Shown one piece after another: positions 15,104-61,502 of a stretch of 64,000 nucleotides of DNA; position 1 is the first letter of the stretch, and every line of letters starts with the position of its first letter. The stretch is from positions 36,368 to 100,367 of the IMG/VR virus record IMGVR_UViG_3300043449_000987; one strand, given 5' to 3'. Both the position numbers and the translations under genes were made by a program. The notes beneath the pieces are model-generated. The model worked only from the letters and a program-made list of their open reading frames with translations, was not told the origin of the DNA and did not search any database. This DNA comes from a virus.

Positions 15104-15704
15104 TCGTAAATCCCCCATTAGCAAAAAATACCTTCTTGTATTCACTTGCCTTTGCGTTCATTATTGAATTTACTTCTTCACCCTTTGGTGCAGCACCTGG
15201 TTCTGAAAAATGGAAAAACACCATTTCTACAAACTGGTCGTCTGCAAAATCTTGTGGCTTTCTCCAATGTATTTGATGTGTGCCACTAAATGTAACAGCC
15301 TCATTATTTTTTAGTGTAAATTCTTTATCTGGTTCAACAATTAATGGCCAATCAATATTGCCATTGATCTGGTAATCAAAAGTAAATCTTGGCTCTTTAA
15401 ATGTTTCATCATAATGAGGAAACAGTGAAGGCTTGTAGTGATATTTTCCACAATTGCTTGTGACGTTATTATATCTAGCATGACAATATTCTGTGACTTC
15501 AATCTTGTCATTACCGCTTAACTCTCTGGCAATTTTAGTTACCTTATCAATAATGTTTTGTGGCAACGAAATAAAGGTGTTTGCTTGTGCGTGAACCTTA
15601 ACAAAGTCTCCACCAGAATTATTTTGTACAGCCTTATAGATTTCATTAATCTCATCTCTTGTAAATACATCTTTAACAATTGTATTTATTTCATCGTATT
15701 TCAT
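15087..15704 (-). CDS. 2OG-Fe(II) oxygenase-like, triplet member 2
   Basis: LFPHYD ... FSGTHQIHWR. Confidence 0.75.
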   Translation of the reverse strand: MKYDEINTIVKDVFTRDEINEIYKAVQNNSGGDFVKVHAQANTFISLPQNIIDKVTKIARELSGNDKIEVTEYCHARYNNVTSNCGKYHYKPSLFPHYDETFKEPRFTFDYQINGNIDWPLIVEPDKEFTLKNNEAVTFSGTHQIHWRKPQDFADDQFVEMVFFHFSEPGAAPKGEEVNSIMNAKASEYKKVFFANGGFTNDASD

Positions 15705-17825: not shown

Positions 17826-20800
17826 TTATATCCTCCAATATAACTGTTCCATCTTTTGTTTTACCAAGTTCAAATTTATATGCATGACCCTCTTCAATTT
17901 TCATATATGCCTTTGCAAATGCTGTTGGGAATACAGTAATTGAGTGAAGATCTCTAGCCGTATCTGCAACAGTTAATGATGCCATCTTTTTACCAGCCTT
18001 TGTAATTCTTGGCTTAAATGAAACAACAAACATTTCATCATCTTTATATGGCAACTGTTTATAATTTAAAAATTTCACAACACCTGCACTAGATGTTTTG
18101 ATTGAATCTACAGGCACAGCAGAAAGAATCCGATTATCATTAGCAAGAATGATATACGATACGCCTGCTTCAATAGTTGTTTGTTCGTCATCAAAAATAC
18201 CTACACTTCCTGTTTTATCTAGCACTTCTACTCTTGACCAACCTTTTGCTCTCTTAATAGATTTTACCATACCCATTAAAATAAAGGAACCCTTTTCTTC
18301 ATAATCTTCAATTGGACTTATAAAGGCATGATAGTGTGATGGTACGGTAATATTAAATTCTGGAAGATTTAAATATTCATATAAATTTTCTTTAATTTCT
18401 TGTTCATTTCTTGGATTGTCTGCAAAAGTTGCTGCACCAATAACTCTCAATGCTTGAAGTGCACGAGAATTTACTCCGTTTCCTTTTGTAAAGGTGAACT
18501 CTTCAAGTTCTTTATACGAATTGAACGGTCTAGCAGATATGTATCTTTCACCAACTTTGTCAGATATGAACTTGATAGCACTGAGTCCAAACCGAATGCC
18601 CTTACCCTCAATCTTAAAATCAATATCCGAATCGTTAATGTGAGGTAGTTTAATGCTAATCCCCATTCTTTTTGCTTCAATAAGATATTCAGTTCTTGCA
18701 TCTTTGTCCTTTTCATTTTTTAATAGTGAATACATAAACTCAAGTGGGTAATGATACTTTAGCCATGCCGTCCAATACGAGAGCGTAGAGTAAGCAACCG
18801 CATGAGACTTGTTGAACGAGTAGCCTGCATGCGCCTCAAAGTCATGCCAAAGATCACGAGCCGTATTGGGACTAATATAGGCAGAAGCACCTTTAATGAA
18901 TTGTTCTTGGTATACGTCAAACTCTTTAGCATCTTTTTTCTTACCAATGATTTTTCTAACTTTATCTGCTTCCGACATGGACATACCTCCAAGGTATACG
19001 CATGCTTGCATAACTTGTTCCTGGTAAAGAATGCAGCCATATGTGTCCTCCGTAAATTCTTTTAGTATTTGATGAGTATACCCAATATTTTGACGACCAT
19101 GCTTACGTTCAATATAATCTTTACCAATTGTATTCATTGCGCCTGGGCGAACTAGAGCATTTGAAGCAGCCAGTTCAGATAAATTCTTTACACCCATTTT
19201 AACAAGAAGGTTGGTATACGGTGCTGCTTCACACTGAAACACTCCCTTTGTATAGCCATCAGACAGCATCTGATAAACATTTGCATCGTCCATTGGAATG
19301 CTAAGTGGATCAATAGTTTTACCATCTCGTTCTTTAATAATATCTAATGCATCTTTAACAACACTTAGTGTTTTAAGTCCAAGTGCGTCGATCTTGATAA
19401 GACCAATCTTTTCAGCCTCTTCCATGTCCACCGCAACAACAGGAATACGCTCATCACTGCCAGTAGCAGAACGTGTCTCCATTGGTGCGTACCTAAAAAT
19501 AGGATCTTTACTAGTGACAACACCAGCAGCATGAATGCCAGTACCTCTAATACGACCACGTAATTGTTCGCCATAAATTTCTACCTCTGGATATTTCTCA
19601 CGGAATTCCCGTGTTGTCTTAGATGTGCAAAACTCATCCCACGTATCCACAAGTTTAAGCACCTTGTTTACATCTGTGAGTGGAATATTTAATACTCGTG
19701 CAACATCTCTTACTACGCCCTTATCTTTAAAAGAAAGGAATGTAGCAATAGATGCAACATGTCTATATTGTCTAACAAGATAATCTTTAACTTCTTCACG
19801 ACGAGAGTCTTGAATATCTGTATCAATATCAGGAAAGTCATTGCGCTCTGGATTAATAAATCTAAAGAAAAGCAGTTTATGCTTAATCGGATCAATGTCT
19901 GTGATTTTTAGTGCATAACATAATAAAGATCCAGCAGCAGAACCACGACCTGGACCTACCATGATTCCTTCTTTTTTTGCCCATGTGATCATATTACGCA
20001 CAACAAGAAAGTATGGACCAAACTTTTTATCTTTAATTACTTTAAGTTCTTCATCAAGTCTGTCTAAGTATTCTTGATTATCTGCAAGGCCTCGCTCCTT
20101 TAATCCCTCAAGTGCGAGTTCCTTAAGTTCTTTATCTGGATGCTTATATTGTACTGGCAGTAAATCAAGACCTTCTTGAATTCCATAGTCCATAACTTTT
20201 TCAGCAATGGAAAGAGTATTGGAATAAATGTCTGGTCTATCAATACCCTGTGCTTCCATTGCAGACTTCATCTCTTCGTATGAAAGAAGATGAATGTCAA
20301 ACTCATTAAATGTAATTTGGCGATCATGTCCGTATAGGTAATCCAAGCGATCCATCATATTGTCAAACTTCTTTGACTTTTCAAATGTATGCTCTTTGTC
20401 TATTTTGACATGTGTATTTAACAGAAGTTTAAACTCTTGGATTTCTTTCTGATCAACAGAACTATGGTGGCAGTCAGGGGTAACAACAACCTGAACTCCA
20501 AACTCGTCTGCCAATTGAATTAACTGCTTATTAATTTCTGCCTGATTGTGTGGCATCACCTCAATATAGTAGTCATCATTAAATACTCGCTTAAACCATT
20601 CAATGTGCTTCTTTGCTACTGCAAATTCATTATTCTCAAGAGCCTTTACAAGTACGCTACTTGGGCATGCAGAAGTAACAATAATACCCTCTGAATATTT
20701 CTCAAGAATCTCAAAGTCAAACCTTGGCTTCTTGAAGTAACCTTCTGTCCATGCAATCTCATTAATTTTGTTAAGGTTCTCTAGACCAATTTGGTTCTTG

Positions 20801-25396: not shown

Positions 25397-25836
25397 TTAG
25401 GTATTCCAATTACGATTATGTTAACTGCTACAGAAAGATCTCCAGTAGAATTAAATCTTACAACTCCTTCAACTTTTGAAGTAGTAACAGTTTTTAAAAT
25501 AACAGAAACATTTTTACCTGCGTCTGTACCACCAACGTTAATAGGTGTAACTGTTGCAATTGGGGCATACTTAAAATCTGTTGGAAAGTCATAAGAGAAA
25601 GACACTTCATTGCCAGCACTCTTAGTTGCACTATTTACTACATCAATATATCCGCCAAGAATTCTGGCTTCAGATGCCTTAACACTTTGCTTTCCTGTAT
25701 TTGGCGTATCAATAGTAACATATTTATAGTTTGATGGTGAAACTTGCGACGCAAGGTCATTTAAAGCCTTTGCTAGTTGAGAAATATAGGACACATCTAG
25801 GGGTTGTCCTCTGTCGGGTAGTGGTACTTTAGCCAT
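25393..25836 (-). CDS. Probable small virion/tail protein, leaderless
   Basis: ATG 6 nt after TGGTATAAT (25843-25851); beta-rich C-terminus. Confidence 0.6.
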   Translation of the reverse strand: MAKVPLPDRGQPLDVSYISQLAKALNDLASQVSPSNYKYVTIDTPNTGKQSVKASEARILGGYIDVVNSATKSAGNEVSFSYDFPTDFKYAPIATVTPINVGGTDAGKNVSVILKTVTTSKVEGVVRFNSTGDLSVAVNIIVIGIPN

Positions 25837-27892: not shown

Positions 27893-30800
27893 TATGCCAC
27901 CTCACTTAAATGAATAGTCATTTCTGGGCCTTCTGCAGTTTTTGCATACTCTATATTATATACTACAAACCTTGTTGTTGACGGTGCTATCTGGTTAACG
28001 CCATTTTCATCTTTATACTCAATATTAACAATATCACCCAATTGAATTGTTGGTGTACTAAAAATTCTCAAACCAACAGACTTTCTAGGCTTCATAATCT
28101 TTGAAATAATCCAAGCCATCAAAGATTCGGCATCATCTGTTGTTTGTATATATGGCGCATTTAAAGAAAAATCATTTTTGCCATAAGTCATTCTGCTAAC
28201 TTTAATATCTTCATAATCACTGTCATATCTAATTGGAGACTTTGATAACTGAGTATTAGCAAATTCAGTATTTGTAAAGTCACTCATTTTTTTAAAATAT
28301 CCGTCCACAGTAATTTCATTGGATGATTGCTGTGTAAAGGTAACCCCCTGAATTCTTAAATAATTTCCAGTTGTCTCATCTAAACTTAACGCTGTGTCTG
28401 TAGAATTAAAAATCAAAAATTCTGCGCCATATGAACCAGACATAAAACCAGAAACAGTATAGCCCTTGATTCTATTAAATGTAGGAGAAATCTTAGAATA
28501 TAATGCTGGATAGGCTTTGTCATATCTAATATTAAAGTATGCTGCCTCTCTCATTATAGTTCCAAACTCATCAAAATATATATTATACTGCGGAGGTTCT
28601 GATGGACTAAGACCAGAAAGATATGTAGATTGAATAATTCCACTCATGGCATATTTGCTGAATGATTCGTTTGCATTGATCTCTTCATCTTGAATTGCAG
28701 TAAGTGCAGGTGTATCAAGACTGAATGTGGTATTTTGTGAATAGTTATTAGTTAAAGCGTAAACATTTTCAAACATACATCTAGATGCACCTCTAGTAAA
28801 AATAGCCATATTATTATAAATAGGCATTGGGTTTATATCATCTACTGTTGTAATAAGTTTATTGTTTACGTATAAATAAAATCTTCTTATAGACCCAATG
28901 TCTTGATACTCTACTGCAAGATCGTATACCGTTGGATTTTGCTCCCCAACCATTCTATACTGACCAGTAAATTTACCATCATCGACAATTACATTAGATA
29001 GACCACCCCAAAGTTTAATAGGTATAGCCTGGCTAGAGGAAGGATCTTTTGCAATTTTATAAAAGATAATATTATGAATTGTATCTGACCCACTTGTATA
29101 ATTATTAATATTGTTTTCTGTTAGTGCAATTAGTTCAAAGTAGTAGCCGTTATTTGTTTCTGGATTTACCATGACAGCAAGACCACCAGAACCACCACCA
29201 ATATTAACGCCCTGATCTGGTTTTGAGCCAGTAACAACATAATATGTTTCACTACCAATAGGGGTTTGTCCACGAGTTTCATTGTTTTCAATTTTTCCAA
29301 TAATTCTCATTCTAGTACCAAAATGTCTATACTTATTTGTTAGTGGCTTGTAAACATAAGAAATAAAATCAAGTGGTGCTTCTGTTGTTCCAAATGGTGG
29401 GCCATTTAGTACTAAAGCAGAAGACTGAATGCTACCAGTCTGTGTAGATAAAAGTTTATTGACATCGGATTCGCTTATGTAACTGTTTGCTAAAAAGTTT
29501 TTAATAATTCCATTTCTTGATGATTTAATTGCAAGCGAATTATTAATACCAGCAGCACCTAATGAATATGGAGTTGTTTGATTTGATTGGTTGTTTATAC
29601 TAAAAAGATTTTCAGATTTCATTGTACAACCACGAACGTTTGCATTGTCTGACCAATAAGAATTAATTCCTGCACTATGGTTAACAATTGCACTGCCAAA
29701 TTGACCTCTACCGTGTTTTGCAACTGGTCCATTTTTTAAAACATATATATCATTAATAACTTCATAGTTTGGTTCAGCATAGATTCTTATCAGACCAGTT
29801 GGATAGATTTTTCCGTTAAAACTAATCTTTGAAAAATAATCTTGGTATTCTTGTCCATTTTTAATCCATACATTTCCAACACCAGAAACGTTGTATTGCA
29901 CTGCATCATATTTAATTACTTCGCCATTTGCATAAAAATATCCTGAGTTTCTTGTTAACCAATAAATGCCTTCGCCAAGATCCATAGTATTATTAATAAG
30001 TTTATTTCCAGAAACATATGGAATAGCATCAGTTAAATTAGAATTAAGTGGTATTGCGCTTAACACATAACTGGACTGCGTACCCACCTGATCATTAACA
30101 GACTTTGTTGATTGTGAACCAGAAACCTCCCACAAAAGAACTGGCTTATATACCCAAGTTTTATCTTGATCAATCATGCTTGCCTGTCTGAGTGATCCAA
30201 AAGTTTTTTGAATATATCTTGTTTCATATGATATAGCGCCAGCATTAAAAACAGAGTTTTCCTGTGATGCAACTTCAATAATGTTTGCAAGTTTTGTGTT
30301 TGTTGTTTTATTTTCGACTAGCCCAGAATCTTCAAAATCTATAGATCCATACAGCGTTAAATCGGTTTCTCTCTGTGATTCTGACGGCATTAAATAATCT
30401 TTGGTCATCATAACAAAATTATTATATTCATCAAAAAACATTGCTGTTTGTGTTGATACTGCTAAATCATTAAGTACTTGTGCAACACTTTGATCTGGCG
30501 CAATATAAAAATATGGAATAATTAATTCTGGCTCATCATCAATTCTCTTAAATACATAATTTGAAAAACCAATACTATCTAACAATATTGCAATTGCAGA
30601 ACTTAAAGAAGCATCTGTTAAAAGTATTTGTGGAGCAGTTTGTGATTCAAAATAAAAGTACATATCTCTTAAATTTAAAGTAACTTGTCTATCGTAGGTG
30701 CTTGTTGATGGGAACCCTTCAGAGTAAAGCGTTTTGATTGGTACAAAATAATCATATCCATCAACATCAACAACTATGTCATAAAACTTAATTTGTATAT

Positions 30801-32833: not shown

Positions 32834-35800
32834 TACTTTCTAATCCCCCTAATTCTTTGTGAATCAATTTGCTTAATCTGAGCAATTACTGTTTGAGCAA
32901 TTTCATTTGGATTTGCGTCAGACTTAACATTAACATTTAAGTTATAAGTATACACTGAATCGCCAACACTTTGACCATTATTCATTGCTTTTAGAGTGCC
33001 AACTCCATGTGTATTTACGGCATACCTGCTCATAACAAATTCTCCAGGAGTTAACATTGCTGGAACAGTATCTGTTCCTCTTGCATACCCACCAGCAACA
33101 AAGTATTTTGGAATAATCCCACCACTTGATCGATAGTAGGAATCGATCTTTTCTGCTTTTGCAGCAGCCTCTGCTCTTTTAAGATTTTGAAGTGCTTCTG
33201 CTTGTTTTTCTGCTGCTGCTTGTTGTGCATAGTACTGAATTGCTTGACCAGTATATCGTGCTGATGACATAACTCCAGCAACACCACCAAGCGCTGCTGT
33301 GGCTGCCTTATCTTTTAGTAAGGAATCAGCCATTTGATTTGCAATTTGACCTGCTGTAAGATTGGTCTGGGTTCCACTCTTAATTGCAGTAATTAATGTA
33401 TTTGTTTGATCCGTAACTGTTTTATTTACAGTGTCAATATTTCCAGGGTTGCCACCACCACCACCGCCACCACCACCGCCACCAGTGGCTGTTACTGATT
33501 TTGCTCCAGTCATTGCTGCTTGTGCTGCTGCTGCAGCCTGTATAGCAGCAAGAACCTTTTTCCATGCATCTTCAATACTAAGTACACCTGACGCAATATC
33601 ATCTCCTAGCCCAAGCAAACCTTCTTCTCCAAGCCATTCTGCTGTTGTATCAATTACAGCATTAATTGCTTCCCACTCTGCCTTACTTCTACCTTGAGCA
33701 TCAACAATATTATTAATTGCATTTGTCATATCAAAATTATATTTATCAATAATTTCTTGCATTTTGTCAATTTCTTGTTGTTTTTTATCTAAAAGATCTT
33801 GTGCTGGTTTTAATCTTAATTGCTCAATATTATAAATATTGTCTTCTTTAGACTGAATCAAATCTTGTAGTTCAGTACGAGTATAAAGTTTTCCATTAAT
33901 TTCAACTTGAATTGCATCTATTTCTTTTTGCTTCTTTAACTCTAAAGCATCTTTTTGTTTTCCGAGATTAGATATTAATGCATCTTGTGAATTTTGTGCT
34001 GAGGCTGATCGCATTTCCTGTGCAATTCTTGCTGCTGCACCAATATCACCAGAACTTAAAGCACCAGCCAAATCTGTTTGCTTATTTTGTTGATCAAGTA
34101 TCTGTTGGTTAACCTTTTTAACATCTTCAAGTGCTGAAACTTGATCATCAATTGCTTTGAGTTTTTCATCATAAGCCTTATTAATCTTGTCTTCTTCTCT
34201 GCCAATTAAATCAAGACCACGGTTATATTTAGATACCAGTTCTTGTTCAGCATCAATCTCTTTTTGAATTCCATCAACAACTGTCTGTTGTGCTTTTGCC
34301 TCTTGTTGTTTTGCAGCAATTGCTTGTTCATATTTTTCTGGAGACATTCCTTGTGCTGCAACAAAATTTTGTCTTTGTTGCATTCTGACAATTGCTTCTT
34401 GTGCTGCAAAATATTGATCGAGTTTGTCTGCTGCCGTTTCTTTTTGCTGTGCATCTTGGAACTGAAGAATTTTTAATGTTTTACCAAGTTCTTTTACATT
34501 TGAATCTGCTTCTTTTGCACCCTTTATAAAATCTTTAAAATCTTGACTATCAACCTTTTCTGCGTTTAGTGCTGCGACCAATGCATCATTTCCTAGTATT
34601 TCCATAATTTTGGAAGCACTTAAACCAGATCCTGCCAACTTAGTATAAACAGAAACTTGTTGTTGTGCATTTTTAACAATATTTTGTTGTTGATCTACAA
34701 ATGTTCCAAATTCAATTTCTTTAGTAAACTTTAATATAGCCTGACCAAGATCTCCAAATATTACCTTGCCATCTTTACCAAGAGCATATAGTCTATTTTT
34801 TGTTCCATTAACAGCCTTAAAGGTTTTTGCATCAAGTCCACCTACAATGTCAATAAAGGACTGTGTAGCCCCACCTGCACGTAATAACTCATCAGTTCCT
34901 TTAAACCCTGTTAAATCACCCTTAAGGGCCTTAATAAAGGCACCTACACCACCAGTAGCATTAATAGAAGCCAGTCTAACTCTCTTCAACTTCATTAATA
35001 GATCATCAATAAATGCAAATGGATTGGTTCCACTTCCAGAGTTATCATTAATTCCCTTTGTGCCTGGAGTTTCAGGTGAATCTGGTGTTACCTTGCCACC
35101 ATTTTCAATTGCTTTAGTTAATGCCTCAACTTCTTTTCTTGCCTGTGCTGCACGATAAGCATATCCACCAAGAGCCTTACCACCCTTAGTTTTTGCTGCT
35201 GTATAAAGTGCATCTGCTGTTGCTTGCTTTTCTAATGCAACACTTAGTTGTAATTGCAATCTTAGTGCCTCAGAAATACCAGTAAGATCTGCAACAAATT
35301 TAATTTTTTGCTCAGTAGTTTTTCCATTCATTTCTTTAAGAATAGTATCAATTTGTAAAATGTCTGCTGGACTTAAACTTCCTTGTGCATAAGCAATAAG
35401 AATTTCGCTTCGCATATTTTTTGGTATGCTTTTTGTAATTGTTTCTTTTAATAATTTAGCAACTTTTTTATTTGTTTTTTCAAGTGATGCAAAAACTTGA
35501 TCTGCTAAATCTGATAGTGCAGCCTCAGATGCTTTTCCAGTTGAGTCAACAGCGTCCAACGATTTAACAAGATCATCAGTTGCTTTTTTGATGTTTTGGA
35601 AAACAACCATTTGTGCTGCATAGGCTGTATTATATTGCTCTACGCTAATTTTTCCATCCACATACATTCCATTAAGAAGTGCTAATGAATTTTTTTGATC
35701 CTCAATGGCTAGAGTAAGTGCTACTGTAGCAAACTTTGTATTTTTAATTTTTGTTTCTATAGCATCTCTTCCTGCTTGGTTTGCTGCATCAGCATCCTTA

Positions 35801-49502: not shown

Positions 49503-52500
49503 CTATACTGCATTTACAGTTCTACTTTGCCAAGAAACATCGGAGTAAACATTATACTCGTAGGATCCAAACGATAAAACCTTTGGATTAGCCTCTAGGG
49601 CATTATAGTCATCAACAATAATCTTGTTTGTTCCTGTGTATGACTTATAAATATCTGATGGTTTTACACCATAATAACTGGTTGATGATAGAACAAGAAC
49701 ACCATTCCAGATGTATGAGGAATTCCAGTACTGCCAGTCTAATTCAACTGGGCCAGAAAACCTAACCTTAAACCATGGTCGTTTTGTAACAGTTTGAACC
49801 TCTTGAAGATTTGTAGACTGATAATGAGAAATTAAATTAGTTAAAATTGGACCATTAATTTTAAATGATCCTAGATAGTTATTAAAGTTTAGGACATTAG
49901 AAAAGGAAATACCTATAAATGCCCATTGACGAGTTGTAATAACTGGCTCTCTAACAATATTACCATTTAAATAAAAAGTAATACCATTTTCAATCCTACC
50001 AGTATTAGCATTAATTGCATATATTCTTGCACGATCACCCGTTGGACTATTAGCCTCCATAAAAAACTTTAATAAAGATCCCTTGCTATCTACCTCAAAA
50101 ATTTGTGTTGCTGCAAATGGAAATAAATCTTGATCGTATCTAACTGCCACCTGCATTGCCATTACTTGATAATTTGAAGCAAGTCCAGAATTAATAGGAA
50201 TTGCAACACCACGATTAATTAGTGGGTCATACGTTCCCTTTACTTGTATTCCGCTATATCGTGTTAAATATAAATAAGGACTACTTCCCTTGTATATAGA
50301 ATATGGGTTTGGATTTTTGTAATCGTAGTAAAAACCATTTTTACGATATGGATACATTGGTACACCAAAACGAGTTCCAATTTCTGTAATTGAAGATTCG
50401 TTTAGTGATTGAGAAGCCAACTGTAATTTTTTAATTTTTACAGAGTTACGCAAAATTCCTTTTACACTAAAATCTAAATGTACAACAAGAGACAGATCAT
50501 TGAAGTCTGCACCTGACGGTGGATACAAAATCATATTATCAACAACTTCGTACTTTGAAGTAATCCAGTCAGAACCTGGTTCTACAATTCCTCCAGATCG
50601 TGCTGGATATGTTGTATTAAAATAATTACTTCTTGCATTTGCACCAGTCGATGTATATTGAAAAGAAATATAAGATCTTACAACAGATTTAGATGTGTCA
50701 TAATAATAAATCTTGTCTGCCCTATTTTGTAAATCAACATAATCTTGATATCCAGTATATAATTCATTATCTAGAGAAGAATAGTCTCGTTGTATTGGGT
50801 TTCCATATTCCGCCTGTAACTGTGAATATGTCCAAGAAGAATTAATTGATCGCTCTTCAAAGTTAGACGGTGCTGGATAGTTTAAATTAAACTGAATAAA
50901 ATCTAAATCATATTTTTGATTTCCACTTTTATCCTGAATGTATTTTGCAAAATATGTAAGTGGTAAGTTATCTTCCCAATATCCACTCACATTAATATCA
51001 AGCCCAAAATTATCAAAATATTCATATGGGACTAAAGTATAACTTGCAACGTGGTCCTTAATTCTTCTAGTTAGTTCATATCTCCAGTCTTCCCAATCTC
51101 CACCATCAAGAGTTTGCTCAACATAGTGCATATATAATCCTGCGTCAAACTCTACGCCCTGAGTATACGCATCAAACACGTTTTCATACTCTACTGGAAC
51201 TCCATAAGAGTTAAACAGTTCTGAAATTAAAGAAAAGTTTCTTTCATTACAAAGACCAACATTATAAATTTTTCCAAGAAATGTCTGTGTCATATTTCTG
51301 GTTCCAGCAACATACATTTTTAACGCAGTCTTATTTCCTAAAAATGCAAGAGCATCTCCTCCAGCATAAAGAGCAAAGTCTTGAAAATTCATTCCGACTG
51401 AAAAAATTTCTCCAACACCAATTCCATAAGAAGTGTATACATTTTTAAATTCATTATTATACAAAAGGTTATATTCAATATCTGAGTTTACAATATCAAT
51501 TGAAAAATAATTACCGTTGTTTTGATCTTCTAATCTCAATAATGTTTGTCTTGATGAACTTAAAGAAGTAATCTTAAACGTTCCATAAAAAGCAACTGTT
51601 TGATCATTAATTTGGTTTGTATCATTAAAAAATAAATACCCATTTTCATTTGACCAAGAACTATTTGGTCGCAAAGTTATAAACAAATCATCTTCACTTT
51701 GAACTGCCTTACAATCAGCATACAGGTCTTCTTTTGTTTTTGATTGCAACACAATTTCTGGCAAAGCATAGTTTGGTGTAGATAAAATATTATTCTGTAT
51801 ATAAAGGTTGTCAACAAGACCTTGATCCCATTTTCCTAAATCTGGATAGTTATAATTATTTGTATAGTTTGCAAACGGATAATCAATTACAGCAGATGTT
51901 CCACTATAAGCACTATTAATATTTTCTGGTAATTCAACTCCCTGACCATATACAAAACGTTTTTTTGCAACAAGAGATGGAACGCTATATGTGTATATAG
52001 CAACACAGTCGACTTCTATTGGTGATGCATCAACATAGGAATAAAACCCAAGCCAATCTTGATTTTTACTGTTTTCATATTCTAATGGAAATGATAGATT
52101 GTCTGTAATAAAACTTAATGAGATTACTTGATCTCCATTAATTAATAAACTTGCAGAATCTTTTGTAATTCTAATGTGAACAAGCATAGGTCTAGTCCAC
52201 TCACCAACATAATGAGACCCTACATTATTATCAATTTTTAATACCAAAAATGGTCCATCAACATATAGACCGTCAGTAGATCCTATCGGTCCAAATATTC
52301 TTTTTGGTTCTGTTGTACTGGCATTAATTCTTAGCCACATCTCACATGTATACTCATTATACTTTCCAACATCATTTAAAAATCCATGTCCAGGCAAAAT
52401 TAAAGATGGGTAGTTATTATCATTTGGGACCATAACAGTAACATTAGATGAACCATAAACCATAGGAACTCCAGAATTTTTTGAAGATAGAGATGATTCA

Positions 52501-53210
52501 TCTAAAATATAATAACCAGTGCTTTCTAAAAGACCATAGGCTTTTGCTTCAATACCGTATAGTGTTGGCAAATTAATTGTAGACGGAATTTGTACTGGTT
52601 GAATTCCCAAAGAAACTGCATTAAACTCTTCAGACCACTGACCAACAGTAACTCCATTAATAAGAAAGTGATAATCATTTTGATTTTCAGAAGCGTTGAG
52701 ATAAGAGATAGCAATTACAGCCCTCATAGTGGTGTTATCTTGTGGTACTGAAAAAGTTTCAGACACAAAAGTCCATGCGTCATATACTGATGTATTAAAG
52801 TTTTTTAAATTACGAACTACTTCTCCAGTTGTTACATCATTGTACTCATACCCAATCTGAATGCTTGCAATATATGGAGAAAGGGAATATATATATGTTC
52901 CAACCGCAAAGGTTCCATATTCACGATTAAGAGTATTAAAATTAACTAAATCATCGCTCACACAAATAACTGTATTTAATTCTTCTGTTGGAATATCTCC
53001 AATTATTTTTGATGTTGGGGCGTTAATAAATGGTTCGTCCAATACTGAGGGAAAATTAATTACTGTGCCGTTTTTAATGTCCCAAGTAGTAAGATCTCTT
53101 TGCTGATTGGTTATTAAAGAAATGTAGTCTGCTTTATCATCTAAAGCCCACAAAACCGTTGGGTGTTCAGAAAACACCTTTTCTGCATATAGGTTTGATG
53201 GGCTAGACAT
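49503..53210 (-). CDS. Large virion protein with LamG/concanavalin-like domains, 1235 aa
   Basis: Y...V..E.P...W.LD N-terminus, YTCEMW, L.ING, D.VAIY. Confidence 0.6.
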   Translation of the reverse strand: MSSPSNLYAEKVFSEHPTVLWALDDKADYISLITNQQRDLTTWDIKNGTVINFPSVLDEPFINAPTSKIIGDIPTEELNTVICVSDDLVNFNTLNREYGTFAVGTYIYSLSPYIASIQIGYEYNDVTTGEVVRNLKNFNTSVYDAWTFVSETFSVPQDNTTMRAVIAISYLNASENQNDYHFLINGVTVGQWSEEFNAVSLGIQPVQIPSTINLPTLYGIEAKAYGLLESTGYYILDESSLSSKNSGVPMVYGSSNVTVMVPNDNNYPSLILPGHGFLNDVGKYNEYTCEMWLRINASTTEPKRIFGPIGSTDGLYVDGPFLVLKIDNNVGSHYVGEWTRPMLVHIRITKDSASLLINGDQVISLSFITDNLSFPLEYENSKNQDWLGFYSYVDASPIEVDCVAIYTYSVPSLVAKKRFVYGQGVELPENINSAYSGTSAVIDYPFANYTNNYNYPDLGKWDQGLVDNLYIQNNILSTPNYALPEIVLQSKTKEDLYADCKAVQSEDDLFITLRPNSSWSNENGYLFFNDTNQINDQTVAFYGTFKITSLSSSRQTLLRLEDQNNGNYFSIDIVNSDIEYNLLYNNEFKNVYTSYGIGVGEIFSVGMNFQDFALYAGGDALAFLGNKTALKMYVAGTRNMTQTFLGKIYNVGLCNERNFSLISELFNSYGVPVEYENVFDAYTQGVEFDAGLYMHYVEQTLDGGDWEDWRYELTRRIKDHVASYTLVPYEYFDNFGLDINVSGYWEDNLPLTYFAKYIQDKSGNQKYDLDFIQFNLNYPAPSNFEERSINSSWTYSQLQAEYGNPIQRDYSSLDNELYTGYQDYVDLQNRADKIYYYDTSKSVVRSYISFQYTSTGANARSNYFNTTYPARSGGIVEPGSDWITSKYEVVDNMILYPPSGADFNDLSLVVHLDFSVKGILRNSVKIKKLQLASQSLNESSITEIGTRFGVPMYPYRKNGFYYDYKNPNPYSIYKGSSPYLYLTRYSGIQVKGTYDPLINRGVAIPINSGLASNYQVMAMQVAVRYDQDLFPFAATQIFEVDSKGSLLKFFMEANSPTGDRARIYAINANTGRIENGITFYLNGNIVREPVITTRQWAFIGISFSNVLNFNNYLGSFKINGPILTNLISHYQSTNLQEVQTVTKRPWFKVRFSGPVELDWQYWNSSYIWNGVLVLSSTSYYGVKPSDIYKSYTGTNKIIVDDYNALEANPKVLSFGSYEYNVYSDVSWQSRTVNAV

Positions 53211-53225
53211 AATAAGTCTATTTTA

Positions 53226-53735
53226 TCACACTATGCGTGTGAACCAGCGTGGTATTGTGTATCTAGTTCCATTAAGAATAGGCTTAACACCATGAACAAA
53301 ATCTGGTGTATCTGGAAAACAAACCAAATCTCCTGCTCCTGGTTTAAAGTTTATATTATGATCTGGAAAATATATTTCTCCGCCTTCATAATCCGTATTT
53401 ATATAAATGAGAGTAGCAATATCATTTGGCTTTGTAGAGTCAAAATGCTCATGCATCCCAAACCCCTCCTGAAATCTTGCAATGTGTGTTTTTGTTTTAT
53501 CATAGTCGGAAAATGGTCCAGGATAGTTATCTCTAACAAACTTTAAAACATCTACTCCGTAATCATTAATTAAATCAGCGACTTCATCACTATTAAATGA
53601 GGCATGAAATGTAAATTCTTTTTCTCCATTACCATACTCAAGAAACTCATCATCATATTTTTTTGCATAACTAGTAATCGTTTCTGCATGTTCAACTGAC
53701 ATAAACCCTGGAATTATTTTGATTAAATCACTCAT
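53226..53735 (-). CDS. Prolyl-4-hydroxylase-like 2OG-Fe(II) oxygenase (start revised to MSDLI)
   Basis: HFD, YIN.DYEGGE..F, HGV, GTRY. Confidence 0.85.
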   Translation of the reverse strand: MSDLIKIIPGFMSVEHAETITSYAKKYDDEFLEYGNGEKEFTFHASFNSDEVADLINDYGVDVLKFVRDNYPGPFSDYDKTKTHIARFQEGFGMHEHFDSTKPNDIATLIYINTDYEGGEIYFPDHNINFKPGAGDLVCFPDTPDFVHGVKPILNGTRYTIPRWFTRIV

Positions 53736-54333
53736 AGAATCCTTTAATTTCCCAATCATCCCAAGATGTCTCTTCATAAGATGTTCTATTTGGCATAAAG
53801 TGCTGTCCCTTTTTACCCATCCATGCTTCTGACAAAAATAGAAACCCTGAAGTTATCTCAGAAAGTCCGTGAAGGTTGTCTTTATTATCTTTAAAGTAAA
53901 TAAGATCTCCAGGATTTGGCTTAAAGGTTTTGCCTAATTTTGAAAAAACAAACTCTCCACCCTCGTCAGCATTTTTCCATACGATATAAGATACATAGGT
54001 TCCCTCTGGCTTTGAGTCTTCGTTATGATGCTGTGGCTCAGATGTTCCTGGTCTATATCTTAAAATGTAATGCTTTGAAAACATTGGAGGATGATACTCT
54101 GATTCATTTTCAGACTGAACTAATTCGTAGTACCCCTTTGAATATTTAGAAAAGATTTCTAAGATGTGGTCTGGCATTTCTCCACGAGTATGAATATCAA
54201 ATGGTGCTCCACCATTGTACAAGTCATCGTGTAGTGGCACGTGCTCTTCTTTTGTATGAAAAGCAATAGTGTCGATGTAGTCTTGAACAATTTTTAAATC
54301 TTCTGTGGAAATAAAGTTATTTACAATTTTCAT
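53728..54333 (-). CDS. P4H-like 2OG-Fe(II) oxygenase with atypical residues
   Basis: HNE (HxE), EGGE.VF, PGDL, HGL; no Arg at the usual GxRY site. Confidence 0.7.
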   Translation of the reverse strand: MKIVNNFISTEDLKIVQDYIDTIAFHTKEEHVPLHDDLYNGGAPFDIHTRGEMPDHILEIFSKYSKGYYELVQSENESEYHPPMFSKHYILRYRPGTSEPQHHNEDSKPEGTYVSYIVWKNADEGGEFVFSKLGKTFKPNPGDLIYFKDNKDNLHGLSEITSGFLFLSEAWMGKKGQHFMPNRTSYEETSWDDWEIKGFYE

Positions 54334-56450: not shown

Positions 56451-56597
56451 TTATGAAAAACTCATACCTCTAGTATGGTTTTTTGGAAAACATCTTTCAC
56501 AAACTGTATAAGAAAATCCAGTATATGGACATCCTACTGTTTTTTCTTTATGACCGAATATAAAACAAATTGTTTTTTTAATCAAAGTGGTATCCAT
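56451..56597 (-). CDS. Unlisted 48-aa DUF1660-like zinc-binding protein (…CFIFGHK…CPYT…CERC…)
   Basis: Open frame overlapping the upstream stop; C..FGH and CxxC signature. Confidence 0.6.
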   Translation of the reverse strand: MDTTLIKKTICFIFGHKEKTVGCPYTGFSYTVCERCFPKNHTRGMSFS

Positions 56598-57226
56598 ATG
56601 TTTTCATTTACCCCACTTGCTTTTGGTGCAATGTCGTAAGCAATAGTAATACGTGGTTTATCTTCAAACCAATCATCTCGTCCATGTGGATGTCCAGTTT
56701 CTGAAATAATTGCACGATTATTTTTATTATGATTTTCAAACAAATCTGTTCCATAAATTTCATAATAAGTAATTGATGGCTCAGCATTTACACAATAATA
56801 GCCATGAAATACTGGTGCACCTTCTCCACCCATATGATCATGCATAAAGCGTTTATTCTTAACTGGGTTTACTCCAGACCCACCCTCTGTTTTAGGGTCA
56901 TAGTTATACCAGCCATGGATCATATAGGACTTATCATCAAAGGACATATTGTAATACTCACACGCTTCTTTGGTTGCCTCTCTAAGGGCATCCTGAAGGC
57001 TTTTAATGCCTATATGATCAAAGTTAAAGACATTATATTCCATTCCAAGTTGTGTGGTTACACCATTTTTCTTATTAAATGCAGCCAATCTGGATGGCTC
57101 AATATTAAATAGTTTTCCTTCAAGCATTAAGTCTTGTTGCAATTCTAGATAATTGTACAAATCATCAAGATCTGTATTTAAAAATCTTTCAAAAAATTTA
57201 TGTGGTGGCTTTGTCATTGCAATCAT
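56582..57226 (-). CDS. 2OG-Fe(II) oxygenase-like (TIGR02466/2OG-FeII_Oxy_5-like), paralog of 57223..57885
   Basis: GWYN, HDH, FHGYYCV, GHPH, RITIAYD; ATGA overlap at 57223-57226. Confidence 0.7.
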   Translation of the reverse strand: MIAMTKPPHKFFERFLNTDLDDLYNYLELQQDLMLEGKLFNIEPSRLAAFNKKNGVTTQLGMEYNVFNFDHIGIKSLQDALREATKEACEYYNMSFDDKSYMIHGWYNYDPKTEGGSGVNPVKNKRFMHDHMGGEGAPVFHGYYCVNAEPSITYYEIYGTDLFENHNKNNRAIISETGHPHGRDDWFEDKPRITIAYDIAPKASGVNENIWIPL

Positions 57227-57885
57227 GCTAGAGGTATCCAATGCTGTTCTTGATCCATTGCAAATCTTTGAAGATCTCTTAATGGTATAACGTCATAGGC
57301 AATAGTAATTCTTGGACCATCCCAATCCCAGTCTGCCTGTGCATGTGGATGCCCCATCTCAGACAAAACTGCACGATTATTAATGTTTTGATTCTCTACT
57401 TCATTATCAAATACTTTGTAGTGTGTTACAGATGGTTCAGCGCTTACACAGTAATAACCATGAAAATTTGGAGCGCCAGTTGGACCATGATCGTGCCAAT
57501 CTAGTTTTCCCTTTTTAGTGTAATTAATATTAAACCATCCCTGTAGCATAAACTTTTCTTTTTCAAAGTCAAGGTCGTAGTAGGAGCATGCCTCTTGTGT
57601 CATTTCTTTTACTGCCTTATATAAATTATATATTCCTATTGAGTGGAACTGAAAAACATTGTATTGGCGCCATTTCATAGTAGAAACACTGTTTGATTCT
57701 TTCCATAAATCTTTGTCTGTAACTGGTGTTACACCAGTAATTTTTGCCTGCTCAATTTTTTCATATCTATTTTGTAATTCTGAAGATAAGATCAACAGGT
57801 TGTTGTCTAGATTTCTTTCAAAGAATTTGTGTGGCTGAGGCGACTTGCTAACACTTTTCATGCTTGTGTTATACTTGCTTTCCAT
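57223..57885 (-). CDS. 2OG-Fe(II) oxygenase-like, paralog of 56582..57226
   Basis: GWFN, HDH, FHGYYCV, GHPH, RITIAYD; promoter TGCTATAAT at 57908-57916. Confidence 0.7.
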   Translation of the reverse strand: MESKYNTSMKSVSKSPQPHKFFERNLDNNLLILSSELQNRYEKIEQAKITGVTPVTDKDLWKESNSVSTMKWRQYNVFQFHSIGIYNLYKAVKEMTQEACSYYDLDFEKEKFMLQGWFNINYTKKGKLDWHDHGPTGAPNFHGYYCVSAEPSVTHYKVFDNEVENQNINNRAVLSEMGHPHAQADWDWDGPRITIAYDVIPLRDLQRFAMDQEQHWIPLA

Positions 57886-57923: not shown

Positions 57924-58658
57924 TTATTCAACAAAACCATGTTTGTCAATGGCATAATCGTATATCTCTAAGTCTATACTGTTTAACTCAATAATTCTTT
58001 CATACTGGGAGTTTGATATTTTAAAATCTGTTGGGCTGCTTTGATTAATAGGATTTTTAAACAAAAATGGGTTAACGTTAAGTAATTTTGGTAAACCAGA
58101 AATAATTCCATCAATATCTTCTATAAAAAAAATATGGTGGCTATCTATAAACTTAAAAGCATCCTCTTTTGTTTTTTCATTATTATTAATAAACCAGTTA
58201 TTTTCAATCATGGGCTTTTTTTGCAACATTTTACCCTGAATAAAAAATGGACTATTTTTTACAACATCATTATAACTATCAACATCGATTGTTCCAGTTA
58301 AAAATTTAAACTGTGTGTTTGAGTTTAACTCAGACATCAAAGGATTATAGAGCCAATAATCTAGTAATTCTTCACTAGAAATTTCTGGAAACATGAATTT
58401 TGTATATTTAACAGTACTCAAAAATCTATCTACTGGATTTCTTAATATAGTAAAAACTAATGGATTTTTCATATACTGAATAGGATAATTTCCCCAATGT
58501 CCAGCCACATAATAAGAGTTAGAAATAATATCTTTGTTTAACTCAGTGTTATGATTAGACAGATAACCTTTGTTAGCAAACTCATTTTTTAAATGTGTCT
58601 TAACAAAGGTTCCGCCCGTTCGTGGAATATGAGAATGATATATACTATCAAACATCAT
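57924..58658 (-). CDS. Sulfotransferase family protein
   Basis: 5'-PSB loop HIPRTGGT, 3'-PB motif LRNPVDRFLS, C-terminal N..D.E.Y. Confidence 0.8.
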   Translation of the reverse strand: MMFDSIYHSHIPRTGGTFVKTHLKNEFANKGYLSNHNTELNKDIISNSYYVAGHWGNYPIQYMKNPLVFTILRNPVDRFLSTVKYTKFMFPEISSEELLDYWLYNPLMSELNSNTQFKFLTGTIDVDSYNDVVKNSPFFIQGKMLQKKPMIENNWFINNNEKTKEDAFKFIDSHHIFFIEDIDGIISGLPKLLNVNPFLFKNPINQSSPTDFKISNSQYERIIELNSIDLEIYDYAIDKHGFVE

Positions 58659-58668
58659 ATCTTAACTT

Positions 58669-59988
58669 TTAGTAGTACTTAAGGTTGTGTACAAACAAGT
58701 TACCAGCAATCAAGGTGTCTGTAGGCTCGCAGTCAAACTTGTAGACTGTTGCATCTCCGTCAATTACCTCAATAGATTCTACAAGAACTTCTGAGAATGT
58801 CATTGACTCTGGATTGAAAGCAATAACATAATCTCCAACTTCTAGTCCTTCTGTAACTTTATAAGAATAAACGTTTCCACGCTTAACAAAAATACCCTGC
58901 TCTAATGAGTACTTCTTTGAAGGATCATTGTTAATTGTCATTATCTTATTAACTTGCTTTGACTGAAGATTTGCAATACGTGTTGAAACAGTTGTCATAT
59001 TTGTAACTGACTCTGTTGTCCAAGAATATGGATCTGCAATAGACTCGTCCACGTTCTCATCAAATGTTCCTGCCCAAACACGATCATTTACAACACAATC
59101 CTTGGCTGCCTTTGTTGCAAGACCTCCGTCTTCAGTTTGTACTGTAATTAATGTATCTTCGTGAATACATCCTGGTGAGAATCCAAATGGTGAGAATCCA
59201 AATGGAGAGAATCCAAATGGAGAGAATCCGAATGGTGAGAAGCCGAATGGAGAGAACCCAAACACGCTAAATGGTGAGAACCCAAATGGTGAGAAGCCAA
59301 ACACTGAAAACGGTGAAAAGCCAAACACTGAGAACGGTGAGAAGCCAAACACTGAGAACGGAACAAACGAAAATGTAGTAGTTACGCTATCAGAGTAGTC
59401 AGACCAGTCTCCAGAACCAAGAGCATTGTTTGCACGAACACGATATTGCTGTGCTGTTCCTTGCTCTTGACCTACTGAAACTGATGTGCTGCTTGTATTT
59501 CCTGACTTTCCATCTGTTGCTTCCCAATCATAACTTGTAATTGCAGATCCACCATTATCTGGTGCTGACCAGGATACTGAGTCATTACCTGCTGAAGGCG
59601 ATGATACTGAAGGCTTTCCAACTTTATTTGGAACTGTTGTTACGCTTTCGGCATTAGATGATACTTCTGTTGAAGAACCAATTGATGAATTAGCCTTAAT
59701 TTTAAATGTATAACTTCTATTACTTAGTAATCCAGTTACACGATATGGAGAAGATGTTGCTGTAAAGTTTACATCGGCAATTCCTGAAGAAGATGCTGTG
59801 ATTGTAAAACTTGTAGCAGTAGAACCAATACCTGTACCTGCTACATATGTAATGTCATATTGAGCATTATTATAGCCATATCCTACTTTTTGAACATTGG
59901 TAATTGTTGGTTCTGCTGGAGCAATACCCCAGTATCTGATTGTCTGCTTAGCAGACTTTCCTGATTTACCACCTCTACGAATTGCCAT
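58669..59988 (-). CDS. FN3-FN3-(FGFSP)x10-Hint (intein-like) autoprocessing protein
   Basis: Two FN3 domains (VTGL...Y.F.I.A; VSWSAP.NGGS.IT.Y; Y.VRA.N..G...WS), a repeat tract, then G|CIHEDTLI ... L.VGD ... VYKFDCEP...VHN-LKYY. Confidence 0.85.
   Translation of the reverse strand: MAIRRGGKSGKSAKQTIRYWGIAPAEPTITNVQKVGYGYNNAQYDITYVAGTGIGSTATSFTITASSSGIADVNFTATSSPYRVTGLLSNRSYTFKIKANSSIGSSTEVSSNAESVTTVPNKVGKPSVSSPSAGNDSVSWSAPDNGGSAITSYDWEATDGKSGNTSSTSVSVGQEQGTAQQYRVRANNALGSGDWSDYSDSVTTTFSFVPFSVFGFSPFSVFGFSPFSVFGFSPFGFSPFSVFGFSPFGFSPFGFSPFGFSPFGFSPFGFSPGCIHEDTLITVQTEDGGLATKAAKDCVVNDRVWAGTFDENVDESIADPYSWTTESVTNMTTVSTRIANLQSKQVNKIMTINNDPSKKYSLEQGIFVKRGNVYSYKVTEGLEVGDYVIAFNPESMTFSEVLVESIEVIDGDATVYKFDCEPTDTLIAGNLFVHNLKYY
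59173..59373 (-). repeat. Coding repeat array: FSFVP + 4x FSVFGFSP + 6x FGFSP (15/24-bp units)
   Basis: Read codon by codon; synonymous codons vary between units. Confidence 0.95.
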
Positions 59989-60020: not shown

Positions 60021-61502
60021 TTACGCTGTTAGGTCGCCAGTTAAGATCCAAGTATCAGTTGAACGCTTAACTAACGTTGCTGCTGAATACTGTGCACGTA
60101 ACTTCAAACCAGGTGTATAGTAAACAGTTACTCCTGCTGCTGCAGCAATTGTAACTTGTCCTGTACCCTTTTGGAAAATATCAACAGACGATCCTACGGG
60201 GAAGGCAACTGTTGCATTTGTTGGAACTGTAACAGTAGTTGAAGAAGATGAATCCATTTCAACTAAGTTGGTTGAATCTGTTAAAGCAAGAGTATAACTT
60301 GATGTCTTATTATTAAAGGATACTAACATTGCTGCATTTAGATCTGCTGTGCTTGCCTTTGATGCAAGAGCAGTTGTTACTGTTGAAGCAAAGTTAGCAT
60401 CATCACCAAGTGCTGCTGCAAGTTCATCAAGTGTATTTAGTGCTGCAGGTGCTGATGCAACAAGATTTGCCACTGCTGTTCCAACGAACTCTGTTGTAGC
60501 AATCTGTGTTGTATTTGTTCCTGCTGCTGCTGTTGGTGCTGTTGGTGTTCCAGTTAGTGCTGGAGATACAAGTGCTGCCTTAGCAGCAAGATCTGTTGTA
60601 AGATTTACAATAGATGATTGTGAAAGACCATTTGCATCAATCTTTGCATCTGTAACTGATCCATCTGATGGTGTTCTTGTATCAGAAAGACGTGAGTCTC
60701 CTGTGTATACCAGGTTTGCTGAATCTGTAATGCCATGTACATTTGTTGTGTCAGAATTGTGATCTGAAACCTTTGTATCTGCTGCAGATCCTGCTGCTGA
60801 AATTGCTGCGGTTTGTGCATCTGAAGCCTTTAATTCTGCATAAGCCTTTGTTGCAAGTAGGGATGTATCTCCAATACCGTGCACATTTGTTGTTGCATCA
60901 TTATGATCAGATACTGACTCTGCAATTGCGTTGTTGCGATTTGTTACTTCGTCTGCAATCTTACCATCTGTATATGAATTTGCAGAAGTTTCTGCTGTCT
61001 CAATTGCTGTATTAAGACTGGTTGCTTGTGCAGTAAGTGCAGCATTACGGTCTGTAACATTTTGAGCAAGAGCATCAGTCAAATCATCAGTGTATACAAT
61101 GTTTGCAGTATTTGTAATACCGTGAACATTTTCTGTTAGAATTCCGTGATTGCTTACAGCATTATCTACTGTATTAACAAAATCGCCAATTTCCTTAAGT
61201 GTATTTAGTGTTTCTGGTGCTCCATCAATAAGTGCACCAAGTTGGCTAATAGGAATATTGCCATTTGCTGTAAGGGTAGCAACACCATTTGGTTGTCCCT
61301 TTTCTGAGTCTAGAACAAAGCCATTGCCGTCTAGATCTCCAAAATCTTTGAATATACCAAGAGAAGACCAGTTGTTAACGCCGTCACCAATTTTGAATTG
61401 TCCAGTGTCGGTTACAAATCCGATTTCTCCTGCTGCTAAAATTGGGTTTGCTGCATCCCATTGTGCTGCAGTACCTCTGCGTTGTTGCATTCTTGTTGCC
61501 AT
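60021..61502 (-). CDS. Tail fibre-like protein (Mtd/hyaluronidase-type N-terminal domain, fibre repeats)
   Basis: RRGTAAQW..NPILAAGEIG..TDT..KIGDG; SPALTGTPTAPT..GTNTTQIATT; 3x H...T.NVHGI. Confidence 0.75.
   Translation of the reverse strand: MATRMQQRRGTAAQWDAANPILAAGEIGFVTDTGQFKIGDGVNNWSSLGIFKDFGDLDGNGFVLDSEKGQPNGVATLTANGNIPISQLGALIDGAPETLNTLKEIGDFVNTVDNAVSNHGILTENVHGITNTANIVYTDDLTDALAQNVTDRNAALTAQATSLNTAIETAETSANSYTDGKIADEVTNRNNAIAESVSDHNDATTNVHGIGDTSLLATKAYAELKASDAQTAAISAAGSAADTKVSDHNSDTTNVHGITDSANLVYTGDSRLSDTRTPSDGSVTDAKIDANGLSQSSIVNLTTDLAAKAALVSPALTGTPTAPTAAAGTNTTQIATTEFVGTAVANLVASAPAALNTLDELAAALGDDANFASTVTTALASKASTADLNAAMLVSFNNKTSSYTLALTDSTNLVEMDSSSSTTVTVPTNATVAFPVGSSVDIFQKGTGQVTIAAAAGVTVYYTPGLKLRAQYSAATLVKRSTDTWILTGDLTA

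Follow-up and report, generated by a model that had tools for sequence, protein, structure and literature searches.

A Hint domain, possibly a self-removing cap, ends a Phe/Pro-repeat protein encoded in a phage tail-fibre module

Hint and bacterial intein-like (BIL) domains are known as self-cleaving modules. Here, we analyze one that forms the C-terminal part of a 439-aa protein encoded in a 64,000-nucleotide stretch of viral DNA (the window), which comprises the last 64 kb of the 100,367-bp IMG/VR virus record IMGVR_UViG_3300043449_000987 (92% complete; one Hint domain in the record). In this protein, two fibronectin type III (FN3) domains are followed by a Phe/Pro-rich repeat that runs directly into the first cysteine (Cys1) of the Hint domain. 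With moderate confidence, we read the protein as a virion appendage of the tail-fibre module, tailored by enzymes and bearing the Hint domain as a cap that removes itself.

Several described systems resemble this arrangement in part. Type A BIL domains have Cys1 and a C-terminal His-Asn pair without a nucleophile at the following (+1) position; they mostly cleave, and can ligate via the freed amino group (PMC4031507). In Tetrahymena BIL2, the Hint thioester is resolved by a Lys amine, yielding an isopeptide bond (PMC8616854). The ICA/Peptidase_S74 domain of phage tailspikes and fibres is a C-terminal domain thought to aid assembly and then to cut itself off (PMC3742443, PMC8326128). The phage Hint domain shares with the type A BIL of C. 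thermocellum (PDB 2LWY) the fold, Cys1, the C-terminal His-Asn, the lack of a +1 nucleophile and the type of host protein, which is a variable surface or secreted protein and not a conserved enzyme. Unlike that BIL, it sits at the extreme C-terminus with 1–6 residues behind it and always after an aromatic/Pro repeat, while its family has Lys at +1 or +2 and often Gln or Glu at the block-B His position. The BUBL BIL2 of Tetrahymena (PDB 6TMM, 6Y75), which takes Foldseek ranks 2–5 for the phage domain, lies between ubiquitin-like (Ubl) domains and conjugates Ubl, whereas the phage protein has no Ubl and a Lys attack in it would be hypothetical. The Hedgehog Hog domain (Foldseek matches 1AT0 and 6TYY) has the same fold and cleaves at the X-Cys bond via a thioester to give a modified N-terminal product; the phage domain, in contrast, keeps His-Asn, lacks the sterol-recognition region and gives no indication of a lipid acceptor. 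The ICA domain is a functional analogue only, its fold and chemistry (a Ser-Lys dyad) being unrelated. With respect to the neighbouring enzymes, the best comparison is with prolyl 4-hydroxylases (P4Hs) acting on Pro-rich repeats (PBCV-1, 5C5T; B. anthracis, 3ITQ/5HV0), which are matched by a family encoded nearby (3e-10 to 1e-15, intact HxD...H); in both settings a Pro-rich repeat protein is encoded alongside oxygenase genes. The phage repeat, however, is Phe-rich rather than collagen- or PAPK-like, and is a candidate substrate of enzymes that have many paralogues, most of which do not adjoin the repeat gene in this genome. Literature searches returned no description of Hint-capped phage fibre proteins and no paper on Hint as a regular C-terminal cap in a fibre module. 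This agrees with the original prediction, made by a model from the letters alone, that no phage system of such a layout had been described; for a BIL-type Hint domain, the regular setting seen in these phages is new.

The gene and its parts, all on the minus strand like every gene of the window, are listed below with the local confidence (predicted local distance difference test, pLDDT) of a structure model.

58669..59988, minus strand: whole gene, 439 aa, encoding leader, two FN3 domains, Phe/Pro repeat, Hint domain and LKYY (open reading frame (ORF) call; ribosome-binding site)
59908..59988, minus strand: basic, disordered N-terminal leader, residues 1–27 (pLDDT 43–46)
59641..59907, minus strand: FN3-like domain 1, residues 28–116 (Pfam fn3 E 6e-8; β-sandwich, pLDDT >90)
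59389..59610, minus strand: FN3-like domain 2, residues 127–200 (fn3 E 5.7e-4, below cut-off; PHROG 6977; pLDDT >90)
59170..59373, minus strand: Phe/Ser/Gly/Pro repeat tract, residues 206–273, 11 Pro-terminated units plus Gly at −1
58684..59169, minus strand: Hint domain, A-type BIL-like by its features, Cys274 to His434-Asn435, block B reading S-L-E-Q
58672..58683, minus strand: C-terminal tail LKYY, 4 residues, with the family-conserved Lys at +2

A GAGGAG ribosome-binding site lies 7 nt upstream of the ATG, and the ORF, the FN3 pair, the repeat, the Cys, the Hint domain and the VHN-LKYY terminus are all present where the original prediction had placed them. The Pfam fn3 model matches the whole protein above threshold (E 6e-8, 33.2 bits against a cut-off of 25), and the second FN3-like domain, scanned alone, falls below it (E 5.7e-4, 20.5 bits). 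Both domains form β-sandwiches with pLDDT >90 (residues 28–116 and 127–200) in the full-length monomer model, so that the proposed pair of FN3 domains holds with a sub-threshold score for the second on its own. In the same model, residues 1–20 are disordered (pLDDT 43–46), the repeat (residues ~205–272) scores about 40 and the Hint domain (residues 274–435) >90. The region of FN3-like domain 2 is also matched by PHROG 6977, a minor tail protein (1.5e-5), and the leader could possibly serve as the attachment end.

The end domain is a Hint fold of the Hedgehog/intein superfamily. Searches with the single sequence were weak: Pfam Intein_splicing was hit at E 0.004 (17.4 bits against a cut-off of 35.8), no Pfam model of the Hint clan passed its gathering score for either the domain alone or the whole protein, the best PDB match was the KlbA intein (E 0.4), and a scan of the domain alone for weak matches (E up to 10) gave Intein_splicing, PLAT and Pilin_PilA only. 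A family profile built from 43 sequences, drawn from 193 representatives at 50% identity in an exhaustive phmmer search, matched the Pyrococcus (Pho) RadA mini-intein (1.4e-8), the C. thermocellum BIL 2LWY (1e-7) and KlbA (1.3e-7) in the PDB. An AlphaFold2 (AF2) model of the domain, based on the family alignment, reached a pLDDT of 96.3 and a predicted template modelling score (pTM) of 0.90. Foldseek compared this model with the PDB and returned 57 matches at E ≤ 1e-3 (E down to 5e-7), of which the top 50 listed are inteins, Tetrahymena BUBL BIL2, the C. thermocellum BIL and Hedgehog autoprocessing domains only. Among viral models, it retrieved members of the same family from uncultured Caudovirales, auto-named by UniProt as 'Fibronectin type III', 'Hint domain containing protein' or 'PASTA_pknB domain containing protein'. 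The AF2 model, Foldseek and the family profile thus agree that the fold is truly that of Hint, and Cys1 and the C-terminal His-Asn are in place, as had been proposed. The expectation that hidden Markov models (HMMs) for Hint, PT-HINT and fn3 would recognize the protein came true for fn3 and, through the family profile, for inteins and BIL, but not for the Hint-clan models of Pfam.

By its features (Cys1, His-Asn and no +1 nucleophile), rather than by phylogeny, the domain can be classed as A-type BIL-like. Of 103 family domains with an aligned N-terminus, 102 have Cys1, which is invariant in the full-length alignment. Also conserved are the block-B Ser/Thr (151 of 152; Ser 108, Thr 43), a G-D pair, the block-F Asp, the terminal His (138/158) and the Asn (146/152). 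In the 439-aa protein, block B reads S-L-E-Q, with the Ser in place and Gln instead of the usual His; across the family, this position holds Gln in 66 members, His in 57 and Glu in 29. Cys never follows the Asn, and Ser or Thr does so in just six of 124 members (four and two, respectively), which excludes canonical splicing. The tail behind HN measures 1–6 residues in 99 of these 124 members, and Lys stands at +1 in 55 and at +2 in 53, including the 439-aa protein (108/124 together), with 40 members ending exactly in HNK. Family members are accordingly recognized by Cys1, which is invariant, by the aromatic/Pro repeat and by a C-terminal HN-K or HN-x-K. Two degenerate members (L034:672-1958 and L049:7995-9281) have the Hint fold without Cys1, HD for HN and a longer acidic tail after the repeat.

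Other assignments of the domain were rejected. A canonical class 1 intein would likewise have a C-terminal His-Asn, but the +1 residue here is Leu and nothing other than LKYY follows, precluding canonical splicing. For a Hedgehog Hog domain, the sterol-recognition region is missing and the protein ends 4 residues after the Hint domain; for a PT-HINT of polymorphic toxins, there is no toxin domain C-terminal to it; and for the ICA/Peptidase_S74 domain of phage fibres, there is no Pfam match and the fold is that of Hint.

The repeat tract reads FSFVP-(FSVFGFSP)x3-FGFSP-FSVFGFSP-(FGFSP)x5-G (residues 206–273, 68 aa) and is followed directly by Cys274. Synonymous codons are mixed throughout (TTT 13 and TTC 13; CCA 8 and CCG 3; GGA 5, GGC 4 and GGG 2; TCA 10, TCT 3, TCG 1 and AGC 1), while the DNA forms 15- and 24-nt tandem arrays of 82–94% identity (Tandem Repeats Finder). 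The homologues P0003, P0004 and P0005, whose Hint domains are 83–99% identical, differ in unit number by whole units, indicating that slippage or recombination alters the length of the array and leaves the peptide pattern intact. The original prediction had set selection on the peptide against slippage; the mixed codons speak for the former, and the arrays and unit-number differences indicate that both are at work.

The segment ahead of Cys1 is, in almost every family member, built from short repeated units combining aromatic residues, Pro and small residues (e.g., FGFSP, FFPP, YSFTP, PPGFFA, FNN, YNY or IIATP), and an aromatic/Pro repeat directly precedes Cys1 in nearly all full-length members. 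The 111 distinct tracts have a median length of 63 aa and contain 33% Phe, 27% Pro and 2% charged residues. The anticipated variation of the repeat sequence under a constant Pro/Phe pattern is therefore seen in homologues, since the Phe and Pro content is constant over these tracts. This supports the view that selection acts on the repeat as a peptide, with composition kept and unit sequence free. A collagen-like P4H substrate was considered and rejected, as the units are 5 and 8 residues long and lack the Gly-X-Y triplet periodicity. We know of no described function for a Phe/Pro polymer of this kind.

The Hint cap is exchanged among orthologues. We fetched 63 IMG/VR loci with the FN3 part of one family member, and in 23 of the 63 the same FN3 and repeat protein occurs without Hint, ending instead in a Cys-rich tail of ~20 aa (e.g., GGGCSANYCWNCPCYPCAC), a Cys-containing tail of another kind or a plain tail of few residues. 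On a tree of the FN3 part (38 distinct sequences), the distribution of Hint needs 4 changes, at least 2 of them forced by well-supported branches, and the Hint-bearing L011 is sister to the Hint-less L012. The replacement of Hint by Cys-rich or plain tails in orthologues argues that the repeat, and not the thioester, is the core of the gene, and that Hint is evolutionarily dispensable. Orthologues that combine FN3, (FFPP/FFPF)n and a Cys-rich tail lie at L021:8001-8864, L030:4937-5878, L036:367-1344, L042:8001-8930, L043:4674-5627, L045:2560-3516, L048:565-1548 and L012:1688-2548. The seven loci named ahead of L012, whose tails are of the GGGC..YCW.C.C type, have an extra gene of 142–145 aa, with no Pfam match, directly downstream, which is missing in L012. 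Short plain tails are found in L015, L040, L041 and L046.

The repeat and Hint cassette is also joined to other N-terminal parts, namely PASTA domains above the Pfam cut-off (L007, L049 and P0008), the Listeria-Bacteroides repeat (Flg_new) and a sub-threshold BACON domain (17.8 bits against a cut-off of 25). Altogether, clustering at 50% identity divides the Hint family into at least 193 clusters, whose members go by no name other than 'hypothetical protein'; the family diverges down to about 25% identity and is common in aquatic phage contigs. Fusions to PASTA, a peptidoglycan-binding domain, were located at L007:1429-2274, L049:4651-5526, L060:29-946 and L061:7275-8162 and in the protein P0008; the phages of L049 and L060 carry FN3-type and PASTA-type genes together. 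In L007, the PASTA-type gene is followed by a stand-alone Hint ORF of 164 aa, and the locus also contains GT25 glycosyltransferase and methyltransferase genes. The phage record collection yielded one distant match, in Phage NCTB, annotated 'tail protein, contains intein domain'. In this 258-kb surface-water phage (LT598654, 96182-108637; L010), three Hint-ending genes (506, 153 and 1375 aa) stand in one fibre block, with Gly-rich linkers (GGGG directly before the Cys) ahead of Cys1 in place of aromatic repeats.

The genes that flank the repeat protein and bear on its role are the following.

60021..61502, minus strand: tail-fibre gene with an Mtd_N N-terminus (E 5.9e-15), ending GDLTA, separated from the 439-aa gene by a 32-nt gap
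57924..58658, minus strand: sulfotransferase-like gene, 10 nt downstream of the 439-aa gene
57223..57885, minus strand: paralogue 1 of an unnamed His-rich family, probably a divergent 2OG-FeII_Oxy_5 oxygenase (ESM Atlas; no HMM match)
56582..57241, minus strand: paralogue 2, 42% identical to paralogue 1
53728..54333, minus strand: P4H-like 2-oxoglutarate (2OG)-Fe(II) oxygenase, weak member (PF13640 E 3.8e-5, below cut-off; member of cluster 0)
53226..53777, minus strand: P4H-like 2OG-Fe(II) oxygenase with intact HxD...H (PF13640 E 1.6e-11)

Upstream of the repeat protein, a small gene with a PHROG match to baseplate or fibre connectors is followed by a fibre-like gene, a 152-aa gene and the Mtd_N fibre gene, and the order of fibre, small gene, fibre and repeat protein is conserved in 64 loci. 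A scan for promoters and terminators gave the same counts as in shuffled sequences, leaving gene spacing as the basis for suggesting co-transcription; of the original claim that the gene is co-transcribed behind a tail fibre, the 32-nt gap and the GAGGAG site stand, and the scan adds nothing to them. A WhiB-family gene outside the window (44 bits; record positions 28688-28861) points to an actinobacterial host, and the source would be an aquatic, lake-type phage of actinobacteria.

The gene directly downstream had been called a sulfotransferase, and this is upheld in the graded form 'sulfotransferase-like': Pfam Sulfotransfer_2 just passes its cut-off of 22 bits with a score of 23, its match being confined to the N-terminal 80 residues, PHROG galactose-3-O-sulfotransferase matches at 3.6e-8, and the motifs HIPRTGGT and RNPVDRFLS, which we take to be the loops that bind 3'-phosphoadenosine-5'-phosphosulfate, are present. 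The two genes behind it had been called oxygenases. This His-rich family has no Pfam match in 16 members, no PDB match with its profile and, when profiles are compared, no relation to the P4H-like family (probability 0.2%), but lies near 2OG-FeII_Oxy_5 (PF13759) clusters in the ESM Atlas, and there only (features 0.96, structure template modelling score 0.68-0.76); its members are probably divergent 2OG-FeII_Oxy_5 oxygenases. Between this pair and the two P4H-like genes lies a class II-type ribonucleotide reductase (RNR) gene, an arrangement that recurs in L001 and L051-L060. The P4H-like (Oxy_3) family counts 271 ORFs in 58 loci, and its profile has an invariant HxD...H and matches the B. anthracis P4H (1.4e-15), P3H1 (1.3e-12) and the PBCV-1 P4H 5C5T (3.2e-10). 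As called, the two P4H-like ORFs overlap by 50 nt, and the downstream one may start further in.

We counted enzyme neighbours wherever 2.5 kb or more of sequence was available downstream, which was so for 55 distinct repeat proteins. An oxygenase-family gene is among the next three genes in 50 of them, and a median of 5 such genes lie within 8 kb of the repeat protein, whether it is Hint-capped or not. The expected association of homologues with modifying enzymes is thus found, but it follows one syntenic lineage and does not extend to the PASTA copies. The genome as a whole has at least 6 P4H-like genes and two Oxy_5-like genes.

Taken together, these observations are best accommodated by the self-removing cap favoured at the outset. 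Two FN3 domains would carry a flexible, uncharged 68-residue Phe/Pro stalk, in a precursor capped by the A-type BIL-like Hint domain. Most likely, an N-to-S acyl shift at Gly273-Cys274 would allow the cap to remove itself, either by hydrolysis or with cyclization of Asn435, possibly re-attaching the LKYY tail. The mature protein would then end in the repeat, like its Hint-less orthologues. The repeat itself would be the functional core, an adhesive or spacer filament, and the most plausible substrate of the adjoining hydroxylase-type and sulfotransferase-type enzymes. The domain architecture, the Hint fold, the conserved catalytic residues, the family size, the synteny and the exchange of caps are observed; cleavage, location in the virion, modification and the role of the repeat are what we infer. 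The activated C-terminus for ligation or cyclization that the original prediction had envisaged may be expected from Hint-family chemistry, and is weakened by the block-B Gln.

Several observations weigh against this reading. The block-B His, the normal driver of the acyl shift, is Gln here, and cleavage could therefore be slow or conditional. The degenerate members of L034 and L049, which have lost Cys1 and have HD for HN, show that the domain can persist without catalysis. The strict HN and the Lys behind it are not needed for plain N-terminal cleavage, and this unexplained HN-K is the reason for keeping a ligase function as the main rival. As to modification, the adjacency of oxygenase genes follows a single synteny, so that one ancestral arrangement could explain the pairing; PASTA-type repeat and Hint copies have no downstream oxygenases; four of the six PF13640 genes of the genome lie outside the window, 54-75 kb from the repeat gene (2OG-FeII_Oxy_3 genes at record positions 15311-15538, 19473-19775, 25505-25759 and 35314-35568); and no HMM recognizes the two genes that directly follow the sulfotransferase-like one. 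The shared synteny, the PASTA exceptions and the distant copies make the repeat as substrate of the neighbouring hydroxylase- and sulfotransferase-type enzymes a candidate relationship rather than a finding, and one we regard as possible without expecting it to be correct.

If the Hint domain acts as a ligase, the thioester at Gly273 would be passed to an amine rather than hydrolyzed. The acceptor could be the α- or ε-amine of the Lys in its own tail, giving a non-canonical splice with repeat-LKYY or an isopeptide-linked Lys as the product, or, with covalent attachment as the result, a Lys on a different protein of the virion or host surface. Such a function would account for the conserved HN and for Lys at +1 or +2 in 108 of 124 members, 40 of which end in HNK, and it has precedents in type A BILs, which ligate their flanks through the freed amino group (PMC4031507), and in the Tetrahymena BUBL BIL2, placed at Foldseek ranks 2–5, which forms a Lys isopeptide bond (PMC8616854). 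However, a fixed nucleophile would not be expected to shift between +1 and +2 as this Lys does, the BILs characterized so far yield mainly cleavage products (PMC4031507), orthologues lacking Hint manage without such chemistry, and the acceptor is only hypothetical. We therefore consider a ligase unlikely, and give slightly less credence still to its more specific form, in which the conserved Lys of HN-K or HN-x-K is the thioester acceptor and effects an isopeptide splice or the covalent handover of a hydroxylated Phe/Pro stalk to a virion or host-surface Lys. A somewhat smaller chance falls to the idea that Hint is a folded, largely non-catalytic end knob that stays on the mature protein, as a structural tip or as a solubility or assembly cap for a sticky repeat. 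The change of the block-B His to Gln, the relatives that keep the fold without Cys1 and Asn, and the small Cys-rich knob at the same place in other orthologues all fit this idea, but Cys1 (102/103) and HN are conserved far beyond the needs of a fold.

The exchange of caps could also mean that Hint is a passenger, an intein-like element whose function is nothing but its own removal and which spreads by recombination via the repetitive DNA. Its repeated gain, loss and swapping on the FN3-part tree, the transfer of the cassette to unrelated N-terminal parts and the homology that repeat DNA provides for recombination are consistent with such an element. On the other hand, a homing endonuclease is missing, the family is old (~25% identity) and has many members, with a conserved C-terminal HN-K, and the position is always the extreme C-terminus behind a repeat, all of which makes a mere passenger improbable. 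The original prediction had further offered a multi-core precursor resembling those of ribosomally synthesized and post-translationally modified peptides (RiPPs), from which repeat units would be released as modified peptides. Repeated, Pro-terminated units and nearby tailoring-type enzymes are what such a precursor would show. We nevertheless discard it as very improbable: the units belong to a 439-aa protein with two folded FN3 domains and similarity to a PHROG minor tail protein, encoded in a fibre block; no cleavage motifs separate them; and the neighbourhood, composed of fibre, sulfotransferase- and oxygenase-like and RNR genes, contains no RiPP maturase, leader peptidase or other protease, or exporter.

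An abundance of 2OG-Fe(II) oxygenase genes of unassigned role is a known trait of aquatic phages, and the Phe/Pro repeat family gives these enzymes a specific candidate substrate. Should the repeat undergo hydroxylation or sulfation and its cap be removed or transferred, genes of the 'auxiliary metabolic' type would turn out to be virion-tailoring enzymes. Under the favoured self-removal, Hint would constitute a compact self-cleaving tag that is C-terminal by nature and whose active site is an unusual Gln/Lys variant. Should the conserved Lys prove to be the acceptor instead, it would define a new mechanistic class of Hint domains and the first Hint chemistry that builds or anchors a phage appendage. 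Beyond the enzyme island, a 1235-aa protein (window positions 49503-53210, minus strand) that belongs to no PHROG or Pfam family is kept downstream of the island in 13 related loci (cluster 14).

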